Source: a virus. Taken from it: a DNA stretch of 64,000 bases. The stretch's first letter is position 1; each line of letters starts with the position of its first letter. The position numbers and the translations under genes were made by a program. The notes below the pieces were generated by a model. That model was not told where the DNA came from. It saw only the letters and a program-made list of their open reading frames with translations, and did no database searches. Shown here piece by piece: positions 12,782 through 15,091 of the stretch. The stretch lies in the IMG/VR virus record IMGVR_UViG_3300029910_000007. One strand, written 5' to 3'.

Positions 12782-13444
12782 ATGAATAATATACATAATG
12801 TTGTGGAAGAATATCTTGTTTCTATTGAAAATAAATCTGTAGGGGAACGGATTAACGCAATAAATGATTTGAGATTGCTTGTTCACCAGTACAGTCCATT
12901 AAAAAATGAACCAATTGATTGTGTTCTTTGGGTTCATTCTGATTTGGTGCATGCGAATGATTATAATCCTAATTCCGTAGCACCACCAGAAATGGAACTC
13001 TTGAGAGTTTCAATCATGGCTGATGGTTATACCCAGCCTGTCGTAACAAATCCAGAAAATGACAAATATGAAGTTGTGGATGGATTTCATAGAACCAGAG
13101 TGAACAAAGAATGCGAGGATGTTCGTTCTAGGGTTCATGGACATGTACCGATTGTCAAAATCAAACAAAGTCAGGCTGATCTTACCAATAGAATGGCATC
13201 AACTATTCGCCATAATCGAGCAAGAGGAAAGCATCAAGTTGAAGCTATGTCTGATATTGTGATTGAATTGAAGCGTAGAAATTGGTCTGATGAGAAAATT
13301 TGCAAAAATCTTGGGATGGATGCTGAAGAAGTTCTTAGACTCTGTCAGATCACTGGACTTTCTGAACTATTCCAAGACCAAGATTTTTCTCAGTCATGGG
13401 ATATTGAAAACATGGAAGAAAACTTTACGCCATTGAGTGATTGA
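12782..13444 (+). CDS. ParB/Srx-like nuclease-domain protein (IbrB-like)
   Basis: ANDYNPNSV...ELLRVSIMADGYTQPVV...YEVVDGFHRT (the DGxHR ParB N-domain motif). Confidence 0.75.
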   Translation: MNNIHNVVEEYLVSIENKSVGERINAINDLRLLVHQYSPLKNEPIDCVLWVHSDLVHANDYNPNSVAPPEMELLRVSIMADGYTQPVVTNPENDKYEVVDGFHRTRVNKECEDVRSRVHGHVPIVKIKQSQADLTNRMASTIRHNRARGKHQVEAMSDIVIELKRRNWSDEKICKNLGMDAEEVLRLCQITGLSELFQDQDFSQSWDIENMEENFTPLSD

Positions 13445-13446
13445 TA

Positions 13447-13872
13447 ATGAAACGAATATTTCATACATGGGAAAAGTGGGAATGTTATCCAGCAGGATTT
13501 TACGAATCCAGACCAAAAGATAAGTCATTGACAGATGAAGATTGTGAATCAATCTATAAAAATCTTTTAACCAATACAGAAGAATTTGAGGCAGCACTCC
13601 AAGGTGTCATTGATACTTGGAAAAATTCATGCGAACATTACTTGTCCAATGAAAACATGAATCGAATAGCATGGCTAGGACAGGCTTCTTTATGCTATGC
13701 TAAGGGGATACCATCAGATTACAGAGGTGGATTCAATTTACTTACAGAAACTGAACAAGAACAAGCAAATAAAACGGCATTGAAGTATCTTAATATATGG
13801 CTAACACGACGCGGTGAAGAACCAAAATCACTAGAAGATTCGAAGTCAAAAACTCAGGCAAATTTATATTGA
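13447..13872 (+). CDS. hypothetical protein between the IbrB-like and IbrA-like genes
   Basis: ATG 13447 (track TTG 13441); 2-nt gap to the next gene; no motif recognised. Confidence 0.55.
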   Translation: MKRIFHTWEKWECYPAGFYESRPKDKSLTDEDCESIYKNLLTNTEEFEAALQGVIDTWKNSCEHYLSNENMNRIAWLGQASLCYAKGIPSDYRGGFNLLTETEQEQANKTALKYLNIWLTRRGEEPKSLEDSKSKTQANLY

Positions 13873-13873
13873 T

Positions 13874-15091
13874 ATGGGAATCAAACAATACAATCAAGAT
13901 GTTAATGTATATGAAGCTGCTGTTAGCAGAGTTAAGTATGCATTTGATAATTTTGAAAAACTTTATATATCGTTTTCTGGCGGAAAAGATTCTTCTGTCA
14001 TGACTCACTTGGTTATGGCAGAAGCTATCAGGCGCGGTAGAAAAGTTGCGCTTTTGATTATTGATTTGGAAGCACAATATTCAGCTACCATAAAACATAT
14101 AGAAGAAATGGTAGAAACATACAAAGACCATATTGAACTTCATTGGGTGTGCCTTCCGATGCTTCTACGAAATGCAGTATCAAACTATACACCAAGATGG
14201 AAGTGTTGGGATTCAGAAAACAAGGAAATTTGGGTTCGTGACCTTCCTAAACTTGGAATTTCTGATATCAACTATTATCCATTTTTTCAAGATGGATTGG
14301 AATTTGAAGAATTTATGGTCATGTGGGGGCTTTGGTATGCAGATGGAAAATCTTGTGGTGGGTTTGTTGGCATTCGCGCCGATGAGTCATTAAATCGATT
14401 CAGAACCATTGCATTAAGTGATAAGAGAATGCATGGAAATAAGAGATTCACAACACACATTGATGATGAACTTTACAATGTGTACCCGATCTATGATTGG
14501 AAGACAGAAGATATTTGGAGATTTCATGCAAAGTTTCCAGAAAAGATTCATAATCCAATCTATGACCTGATGCATAAAGCTGGTGTTCCAATATCTCAAC
14601 AAAGACTTTGTCAACCTTATGGTGATGATCAGAGACGCGGATTATGGCTCTATCATCTACTGGAACCTCAGACGTGGTTTAAGCTGATTGCCAGAGTCAA
14701 TGGAGTAAATTCTGGTGCTCTTTATATCAATGAAAATGGAAATATTACTGGTTATAATAAAATTTATAAACCAGATGGGCATACATGGAAATCATTCTGC
14801 AACCTTCTTCTTTCTTCGATGCCAAAGAAAACTCAAGAGCACTATATTGAACGATTTAGGGGATTTATAAAAGGGTGGAAAGGGCGTGGTTATGTCGATG
14901 GTATTCCAGACGAGGCACCAAAAGTTTTAGAGGATAAACAATGGGCACCATCATGGCGTCGGATGTGTAAAGTTCTATTAAGAAATGATTGGTGGTGTAA
15001 AGGTTTAGGTTTAACTCAGCCAAAGAGTGAAGCATATGGGAAGTATCTTGCGATGAAGAAGGAGAAGGATGAAAACAATAAAATTAACTAA
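13874..15091 (+). CDS. PAPS-reductase/PP-loop ATPase family protein with extended C-terminal domain (IbrA-like)
   Basis: PP-loop LYISFSGGKDSSV; 405 aa with a long Trp-rich C-terminal region as in IbrA/DUF3440-type proteins. Confidence 0.75.
   Translation: MGIKQYNQDVNVYEAAVSRVKYAFDNFEKLYISFSGGKDSSVMTHLVMAEAIRRGRKVALLIIDLEAQYSATIKHIEEMVETYKDHIELHWVCLPMLLRNAVSNYTPRWKCWDSENKEIWVRDLPKLGISDINYYPFFQDGLEFEEFMVMWGLWYADGKSCGGFVGIRADESLNRFRTIALSDKRMHGNKRFTTHIDDELYNVYPIYDWKTEDIWRFHAKFPEKIHNPIYDLMHKAGVPISQQRLCQPYGDDQRRGLWLYHLLEPQTWFKLIARVNGVNSGALYINENGNITGYNKIYKPDGHTWKSFCNLLLSSMPKKTQEHYIERFRGFIKGWKGRGYVDGIPDEAPKVLEDKQWAPSWRRMCKVLLRNDWWCKGLGLTQPKSEAYGKYLAMKKEKDENNKIN

Follow-up and report, generated by a model that had tools for sequence, protein, structure and literature searches.

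We analyzed a 64,000-nucleotide stretch of viral DNA (IMG/VR record IMGVR_UViG_3300029910_000007), referred to as a whole as the window, and focused on a block of three plus-strand genes of about 2.3 kb at positions 12782 to 15091. The window comes from an uncultured T4-like myovirus from peat; phages of the T4-like group are usually lytic. The first gene of the block (12782 to 13444) encodes a 220-amino-acid (aa) IbrB-type protein with a ParB/Srx fold, identified from its open reading frame (ORF), its match to phrog_2159 and its similarity to annotated IbrB. The second (13447 to 13872) encodes a 141-aa protein, here called Mid, which belongs to an uncatalogued family and was identified from its ORF, its relatives and its synteny with IbrB and IbrA. 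The third (13874 to 15091) encodes a 405-aa IbrA-type PP-loop enzyme, recognized by the Pfam domains PAPS_reduct and DUF3440 and by phrog_2302. All three ORFs are real genes rather than chance ORFs, because Mid has 1598 relatives and IbrA at least 8000.

The original prediction, made from the letters of the window, had described three tightly packed genes with gaps or overlaps of no more than 4 nucleotides (nt), and the ORFs were found at the positions it gave. Read directly from the sequence, the stop codon of IbrB (TGA, 13442 to 13444) is separated by 2 nt from the ATG of Mid at 13447, and the stop codon of Mid (TGA, 13870 to 13872) by 1 nt from the ATG of IbrA at 13874. Given these 2-nt and 1-nt junctions, translational coupling of the three genes is likely. 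An alternative Mid start (TTG at 13441) would create a 4-nt overlap with IbrB and a 143-aa product; we took the length of Mid as 141 aa, starting at 13447, because its homologues begin with MKRI(F/Y)HTW. A scan for promoters and terminators returned site counts at the level of shuffled sequence, and we therefore claim no transcription or operon boundaries. The sole intergenic sigma-70-like site near the cassette (15120 to 15148, plus strand; TTGAAT, 17 nt, TATAAT with an extended -10 TG) falls in the 63-nt gap right after IbrA and may start the next transcription unit.

IbrA combines two Pfam domains, PAPS_reduct (PF01507; E 1.3e-12, 48.6 bits against a cutoff of 22.5) and DUF3440 (PF11922; E 4.6e-34, 118.2 bits against a cutoff of 25), and matches phrog_2302 with an E value of 4.1e-82. 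Aligned over 96% of its length, it shares 43% identity with the annotated IbrA of Escherichia phage PhiR5_2; identity to a Microcystis phage protein reaches 72%, and at least 8000 relatives were found at E<=1e-10. By sequence, the window protein is a true IbrA orthologue. A domain resembling phosphoadenosine phosphosulfate (PAPS) reductases, of alpha/beta type, occupies residues ~1 to 235 and carries the motif SGGKDS at residues 35 to 40, as originally predicted; this motif is invariant across the IbrA family. DUF3440 covers residues ~237 to 400 and is the long extra C-terminal domain that the original prediction had remarked upon. Structure comparison with Foldseek used an AlphaFold2 (AF2) model with a predicted local distance difference test (pLDDT) score of 75.6. 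The N-terminal ~230 residues matched CysH (the best match), CysD, adenosine phosphosulfate (APS) reductase and FAD synthase/FMN adenylyltransferase, with weaker matches to TtuA, NcsA and LarE (E 7e-4 to 4e-3). None of the listed Foldseek matches to solved structures covered the DUF3440 half. In profile-to-PDB alignments, the IbrA segment sfsGGKDs aligned with GFNGGKDC of FAD synthase and YSIGKDS of CysD, whereas the corresponding segment of CysH is a degenerate SSSFGIQA. The intact PP-loop of IbrA, aligned in this way, therefore indicates that the ATP-alpha-phosphate chemistry of the nucleotidyl-transferring members has been retained.

A single cysteine, C375 (in NDxxCK.LG), was invariant when we compared IbrA of the window with those of Microcystis, Pseudomonas, Pseudoalteromonas, Escherichia coli, Mycobacterium and Streptococcus phages. 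It is located in a C-terminal segment of low pLDDT, which, going by the model, is probably flexible. By analogy, C375 may be likened to the mobile C-terminal catalytic cysteine of CysH.

Despite these resemblances, IbrA missed all curated models of CysH, CysD and DndC by a wide margin. We rejected an identity as CysH or APS reductase on the scores for TIGR02057 (28.3 bits against 254.2), NF002537 (27 against 154) and TIGR02055 (16.8 against 235), and on the architecture: IbrA is a 405-aa protein with an intact PP-loop and DUF3440, whereas CysH is a stand-alone enzyme of ~240 aa with a degenerate loop. A DndC identity was also rejected. TIGR03183 gave 17.1 bits against a cutoff of 290.4, the PADLOC DndC matches span only residues 165 to 254, and of the DndC cysteine set, a [4Fe-4S] triad plus a dyad, there is no counterpart in IbrA, which keeps C375 alone. 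The relation to DndC-type enzymes drawn in the original prediction thus survives as an analogy and fails as family membership, with 17 bits against 290 and a single invariant cysteine. The BrxP protein of BREX type 4 was the third candidate to be dismissed: the PADLOC match covers only residues 23 to 85 (E 2.5e-5), DUF4007 is missing, and no BREX genes lie nearby.

IbrB matched the "ParB-like" family phrog_2159 with an E value of 9.1e-72 and shares 48% identity, over 93% of its length, with the protein annotated as IbrB in Escherichia phage PhiR5_2. Its Pfam ParB_N score of 20.5 bits is below the cutoff of 26.3, and a fused relative (P0123, described below) exceeds that cutoff with 29.7 bits. 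The profile of the IbrB family matched the N-terminal domain of Helicobacter pylori ParB/Spo0J (PDB 4umk; E 6.5e-6), and in this alignment the motif DGFHR falls on the GERR box of ParB. By sequence criteria, the window protein is a true IbrB orthologue with a ParB/Srx domain. The ParB_N-like domain spans residues ~46 to 112, with DGFHR at residues 100 to 104 (DGFHRT, as picked out in the original prediction, at 100 to 105, within VVDGFHRT). It is followed by an invariant basic segment, TIRHNRARGKH, at residues 141 to 151 and by a C-terminal part that resembles a helix-turn-helix (HTH) at residues ~155 to 195, in which we found faint HTH and winged HTH (wHTH) matches. The motifs NDYNPN, DGFHR and TIRHNRARGxH are kept in at least 95% of 80 IbrB sequences, including those of E. 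coli, Streptococcus and mycobacteriophage. A role as a partition ParB of a ParABS system was rejected, as the GERRxRA arginine box for CTP binding is replaced by DGFHRxR, a variant like those of Srx, nucleases and DndB. No cluster of ParA-like proteins was evident among the recurrent neighbors of 95 loci, which were read by eye without a full Pfam scan. The flanks of the window cassette encode GP88 and small ORFs.

The middle protein, which the original prediction had given as 142 aa with no recognizable motif, proved one residue shorter when counted from its ATG and belongs to an uncatalogued family. Neither the single Mid sequence nor 66 family members matched any Pfam, PHROGs, NCBIfam or PADLOC entry, and comparisons with the PDB by sequence and profile gave chance-level matches only (intimin and 3-methyladenine glycosylase; E>0.01). 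The AF2 model of Mid has a mean pLDDT of 86.5 and shows a helical bundle at residues 30 to 121. The N-terminal 28 residues, with the segment RIxHTWxKWECYPAGFY, are highly conserved yet unordered in the model. A Foldseek search with this model found nothing in the PDB at E<=1e-3 and one match at E<=1e-3 in BFVD, an unnamed viral protein of 116 aa. The 1598 relatives of Mid (E<=1e-3) are clusters at 90% identity; at 50% identity, the family comprises at least 589 clusters. Ten positions are at least 90% conserved among 66 diverse members: W11, E12, G17, W58, L66, N72, A75, G78, Q79 and A111. We had considered Mid as a metal or Fe-S protein, an idea that was rejected because the close-clade cysteines C13, C62 and C83 vary in the wider family.

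Cultivable phages that carry the cassette include Mycobacterium phage Gaia (gp103, gp104 and gp106), at positions 2953 to 5941, and Pseudoalteromonas phage XCL1123, at 4995 to 7653, as well as Pseudomonas phage Amjad_SA and Microcystis phage Mwe-JY13. With the family hidden Markov model, the Mid homologues were identified as Gaia gp106 (E 1.7e-33) and a 116-aa ORF in XCL1123 (E 5e-38), both annotated as hypothetical, and in both phages Mid lies downstream of IbrA-ParB. The N-terminal extension of Gaia gp104, considered as an alternative location of Mid, has no similarity to it. In Gaia, gp105 is interposed between ParB and Mid; its counterpart in the sister phage Nebkiss is annotated as GIY-YIG-like, and the Gaia cassette seems to have been interrupted here by a homing-endonuclease gene.

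Across the phage records, IbrA and IbrB were matched in 224 and 226 records, respectively, with equal counts in the nine largest host groups. IbrA and IbrB are an obligate pair, and the statement of the original prediction that such pairs recur in phages holds, with both outer genes of the window being orthologous to the pair. The original prediction had also proposed examining whether the middle gene is conserved with the pair, and Mid turned out to be strictly linked to it: IbrB and IbrA accompany it in every one of the 222 phage or metagenome loci that contain Mid and have enough flank. Among the loci of the close Mid clade in IMG/VR and metagenomes (again with enough flank), all 78 have the order ParB-Mid-IbrA on one strand, and in a second Mid clade all 72 loci have the order IbrA-ParB-Mid. 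We also sampled from the other end, using 62 IbrA-anchored loci flanked on either side by 1.3 kb or more. ParB adjoins IbrA in all 62, and Mid is present in 53. The order ParB-Mid-IbrA was found in 43 of these loci and Mid-IbrA-ParB in 10 (IMG/VR contigs L216, L217, L221, L227, L230 to L232, L251, L253 and L264); Mid was missing from the other loci, which read IbrA-ParB (8 loci) or ParB-IbrA (1 locus). The triad orders seen are three cyclic rotations only (B-Mid-A, Mid-A-B and A-B-Mid), and the opposite order never occurred. This pattern suggests that the rotations reflect either tandem duplication followed by loss or selection for a fixed translation order.

Fusions tie Mid to IbrB more closely still. 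In 26 of 73 nonredundant ParB-Mid-IbrA cassettes, IbrB and Mid form a single in-frame ORF of 365 to 395 aa, and at least four independent events of fusion or fission are required on the IbrA tree. A ParB_N-Mid fusion of 387 aa (P0123) was found independently among the family representatives. Mid is most aptly viewed as the C-terminal module, itself separable, of an extended IbrB and as a third component of the system, not a passenger. In other relatives, Mid domains follow different N-terminal parts: Terminase_2 in P0128 (316 aa), wHTH in P0190 (282 aa) and, in P0131 (637 aa), a 500-aa region without assignment. If these are real fusions and not gene-calling artifacts, they would point to Mid joining DNA-binding modules generally.

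The genes flanking the cassette vary between loci and mostly belong to replication and recombination. An SF2 helicase lies near the cassette in 28 loci, abutting IbrA directly in 13, and a YqaJ-like exonuclease in 20 loci, directly upstream in 12; further recurrent neighbors are a VRR-NUC-like protein, a Sak4-like ATPase, DnaB, PD-(D/E)XK proteins, PolA and RecT. Since the flanks differ, the cassette is an autonomous, mobile unit. It is present in phages of cyanobacteria, Pseudomonas, Pseudoalteromonas and Mycobacterium. Patterns for the Mid clade of the window occurred at 21 loci in 185,579 species genomes, all of them on contigs of metagenome-assembled genomes from many phyla, whereas a like pattern scan of IMG/VR returned 510 stretches. 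The triad is therefore overwhelmingly viral, and such a broadly distributed viral cassette suits a universal substrate. Near-identical DNA to the window cassette was found in 0 of 50,697 phage records, and many peat metagenome runs contain the cassette sequence.

The outer pair has a modest literature. Full-text searches of the literature library used found no biochemical characterization of IbrA/IbrB or of DUF3440, in line with the original prediction that the pair lacks a defined biochemical role, and IbrA and IbrB have been described as "proteins of unknown function" (PMC4541368). The partners encoded by E. coli ECOR-9 and related prophages, whose name (immunoglobulin-binding regulator) comes from their coactivation of prophage eib genes, are orthologous to the window pair, are always adjacent and share its domains, with PAPS_reduct plus DUF3440 in one protein and a ParB-like domain with DGFHR and TIRHNRARG in the other. 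The E. coli, Streptococcus and Flavobacterium versions have two genes, IbrA followed by IbrB, without Mid, whereas the window has the order IbrB-Mid-IbrA. The E. coli pair resides on a temperate prophage or island and the window cassette on a T4-like myovirus, and the activation of eib, which is the phenotype of the E. coli pair, has no counterpart in the window phage. The IbrAB pair is thus already known and annotated. The triad with Mid appears to be undescribed, and what appears to be new in it are the uncatalogued third family, the cyclically permuted gene orders and the recurrent IbrB-Mid fusions.

Three other systems offer comparisons. Like the cassette, DndB-DndC brings together a ParB-superfamily protein and a PP-loop enzyme of the PAPS-reductase family that acts on DNA (PMC10853773, PMC12839542); SspD and BrxP are further PAPS-reductase-like enzymes of this kind. 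DndC differs from IbrA in having a [4Fe-4S] triad and a cysteine dyad (PMC10853773), where IbrA has C375 and DUF3440; moreover, no equivalents of DndA, DndD or DndE recur near the cassette, and DndB is regarded as a regulator, not an obligate partner. On double-stranded DNA, 5mYOX thymine dioxygenases depend on phage ParB homologues for their activation, in cognate-specific pairs (PMC13229309). The likeness here is that a ParB homologue is encoded beside a DNA-modifying enzyme, but that enzyme is an Fe/2OG dioxygenase, while the window enzyme is of the PP-loop type. The 5mYOX ParBs keep CTPase-type motifs and a C-terminal dimerization domain and lack a DNA-binding domain, whereas IbrB is of the DGxHR type, has an HTH-like tail and is joined by Mid as an extra module. 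Finally, DpdB is a ParB-like ATPase needed together with DpdA for 7-deazaguanine insertion (PMC12839542). The comparison with the cassette covers the ParB fold; DpdA is a transglycosylase of the TGT family and not a PP-loop enzyme. ParB folds bind ATP, GTP or CTP and have been widely repurposed as regulators (PMC12704722).

We tentatively read IbrB-Mid-IbrA as an ATP-dependent module for modifying nucleic acid, probably DNA, with IbrB, the ParB partner, directing IbrA to its target or activating it; this is a serious possibility that could well prove wrong. It builds on the observed domain identities, intact PP-loop, invariant cysteine, triad linkage, IbrB-Mid fusion, replication context and viral distribution, and from these we infer that DNA is the substrate, what each protein does and all of the chemical steps. 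In this scheme, the phage would express the triad as a self-contained module during replication. IbrB would engage DNA and target or activate IbrA, as ParB homologues do with other phage DNA-modifying enzymes, and Mid, in effect a C-terminal part of IbrB that can be detached, would link IbrB to IbrA. With its PP-loop, IbrA would cleave ATP and adenylylate a substrate oxyanion; the oxyanion is suggested by the structural relatives CysD and FMN adenylyltransferase and, by family, DndC, which act on sulfate or phosphate oxygen. C375 on its flexible tail might then perform the transfer that follows, by forming a covalent intermediate or by donating sulfur. DNA would end up with a covalent mark that weakens the action of host nucleases or changes protein binding and transcription. 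A more specific version, which we regard as speculative and rather doubtful, is that the triad installs an undescribed DNA modification, for example, a backbone or base adduct made via adenylylation, with the ParB/Srx protein loading or switching the enzyme through the helical adaptor Mid. If true, this would be a widespread and overlooked epigenetic or anti-restriction chemistry, because the pair or triad occurs in hundreds of phage lineages that infect many bacterial phyla and at a core Listeria locus.

Several observations weigh against a modification module. Many IbrAB pairs lack Mid and work without it, and Mid is therefore not catalytically essential to the core reaction. Neither Mid nor DUF3440 has structural relatives that point to DNA binding, IbrA is without the cysteine set of DndC, and no cysteine desulfurase or DndD/E-like partner recurs beside the cassette. 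In Listeria monocytogenes, the ParB/DUF3440 pair lmo1309/lmo1310 is a core-genome locus (PMC7020466), which suggests a function not limited to conflict between phage and host. The only experimental phenotype for the family is transcriptional: in E. coli, IbrAB enhance expression of the eib genes of prophages (Sandt et al. 2002, cited in PMC7649339). The window phage itself occurs only in short-read assemblies of peat metagenomes, in which modification is not readable.

The eib phenotype, the only one reported for the pair, is also an argument for seeing the cassette as a transcriptional coactivator or antisilencer. IbrB would then be a switch of the ParB family that remodels promoters as VirB or KorB do and so times the phage genes, and IbrA and Mid would tune it, for example, by making or consuming a nucleotide ligand. 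The database annotation "co-activator of prophage gene expression," the HTH-like C-terminal part of IbrB and the repurposing of ParB folds as regulators (PMC12704722) agree with such a role. We nevertheless consider it unlikely. A 400-aa enzyme with an invariant catalytic PP-loop, conserved at 71 to 80% identity across diverse phages, would be an odd accessory; the cassette moves among unrelated phages with unrelated promoters and neighbors and usually lies within replication modules rather than regulatory switches; and a DNA modification could itself yield a transcription phenotype. The cassette might instead belong to phage conflicts without marking DNA at all, as a toxin-antitoxin (TA) system, a superinfection-exclusion system or a counterdefense enzyme whose target, a host protein or a nucleotide signal, is adenylylated or destroyed; the ParB/Srx domain would then be an NTPase or nuclease. 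The Listeria ParB/DUF3440 pair appears in TASmania as a putative TA system (PMC7020466), a label that is based on guilt by association only. ParB/Srx proteins can act as NTPases or nickases in conflicts (PMC12839542, PMC10853773), and in the window the cassette adjoins proteins with a T4-like capsid-targeting leader, a class with anti-restriction roles (PMC3012670). That adjacency, however, is not conserved (0 of 85 loci), none of the PADLOC defense models matches either IbrB or Mid, the matches of IbrA to DndC and BrxP are short and weak, and very strong purifying selection acts on all three proteins across phyla, which would be unusual for fast-evolving conflict proteins. We judge a conflict role of this kind improbable.

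Two further readings were weighed. In one, IbrA adenylates an RNA base, as TtuA, NcsA, ThiI and TilS do, and IbrB and Mid provide specificity or a scaffold for modification of RNA or tRNA. The weak Foldseek matches to the tRNA thiolases TtuA and NcsA and to LarE, and the tRNAs and transfer-messenger RNA (tmRNA) encoded by the window phage, are consistent with this idea. On the other side, the obligate partner IbrB comes from a DNA-handling superfamily, no Fe-S cysteine triad like that of TtuA and NcsA is conserved in IbrA, the closest folds of IbrA are CysH, CysD and FMN adenylyltransferase rather than tRNA enzymes, and most contigs have replication and not translation genes beside the cassette; we regard RNA as a very improbable substrate. 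The other reading follows the source annotations, "phosphoadenosine phosphosulfate reductase/sulfotransferase," and makes IbrA a CysH-type PAPS/APS reductase that boosts sulfur assimilation in the host, that is, an auxiliary metabolic gene (AMG), with ParB as an unrelated partition gene. The Pfam PAPS_reduct match and the rank of CysH as best Foldseek match speak for it. It is scarcely credible, given how far the CysH models TIGR02057 (28 against 254) and NF002537 (27 against 154) were missed, that IbrA keeps the ATP-binding SGGKDS lost in CysH and carries the extra DUF3440, that IbrB adjoins IbrA in 62 of 62 loci, that the GERR box is replaced by DGFHR and that no ParA-like gene was evident among the recurrent neighbors read by eye. 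A module for modifying nucleic acid, with the reservations above, remains the reading that we prefer.

Upstream of the cassette, the window contains four consecutive plus-strand ORFs that span positions 10280 to 12749, with starts near 10280 (an ATG inside the ORF at 10244), 10792, 11125 and 12414. All four begin with MKT(L/I)xQF(L/V)xxxxE, which resembles MKTYQEFIAE, the capsid-targeting sequence of T4 internal proteins, and three of them are His-rich paralogues. The 430-aa ORF at 11125 to 12417 contains Pfam GP88 (4.6e-33) and a CX6CX3C motif. The four ORFs probably encode packaged, injected proteins, which backs the original prediction of an injected-protein locus at this place; the concept of capsid targeting is laid out in PMC3012670. 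Its use of this position as a clue to function did not hold up: a GP88 homologue lies near 0 of 85 related loci, and we rejected a linkage of the cassette to the GP88 and injected-protein genes, as this neighborhood is particular to the window phage.

Elsewhere in the window, the major capsid protein (58196 to 59596, minus strand) is at most 57% identical to the capsids of cyanophages, Melnitz and Stenotrophomonas T4-like phages. Other genes encode a scaffold protein, a DNA ligase, a thymidylate-synthase-family protein, a nicotinamide phosphoribosyltransferase (NAMPT), an NMNAT/Nudix protein, tRNAs and the tmRNA. The tmRNA is of the permuted two-piece type and lies inside the tRNA cluster at 1809 to 2066 on the plus strand (Rfam RF04321, 82.7 bits against a gathering threshold of 47); its tag peptide according to ARAGORN is AAANDTSWDMALAA. 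Phage-borne permuted tmRNAs are unusual. The window tmRNA may hint at a host among the groups with permuted tmRNA, namely, alpha- or betaproteobacteria or cyanobacteria. An NAD+ salvage-type pair is encoded on the plus strand by an NMNAT/Nudix cytidylyltransferase gene (27988 to 29061; phrog_395) and the NAMPT gene (29473 to 30870; phrog_448, 1.8e-153). Phage NAD+ salvage pairs have been proposed to counter NAD-depleting defenses.

IbrA/IbrB-type pairs are annotated in hundreds of phages, in prophages and in some bacterial core genomes, where "PAPS reductase" and "ParB partition protein" are their usual labels, and they are frequently tallied as sulfur AMGs or plasmid-like traits. For the window cassette, the membership tests argue against both labels. 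With Mid, a loosely described gene pair becomes a machine of three definite parts that fits into a single 2.3-kb clone and can be assayed. The cultivable phages Gaia and XCL1123 are ready experimental systems, and the core ParB/DUF3440 pair of Listeria is a genetically tractable model. Compact, very widespread and strongly conserved, the triad brings the long-open question of IbrAB function within direct experimental reach, even if its mechanism is not yet a surprising one. Should the cassette prove to be a regulator, the old IbrAB phenotype would be accounted for. A new nucleic-acid mark, if that is its product, would add to the cases of ParB-fold proteins partnering with DNA-modifying enzymes and would bear on phage host range, restriction evasion and the counting of AMGs in viromes.

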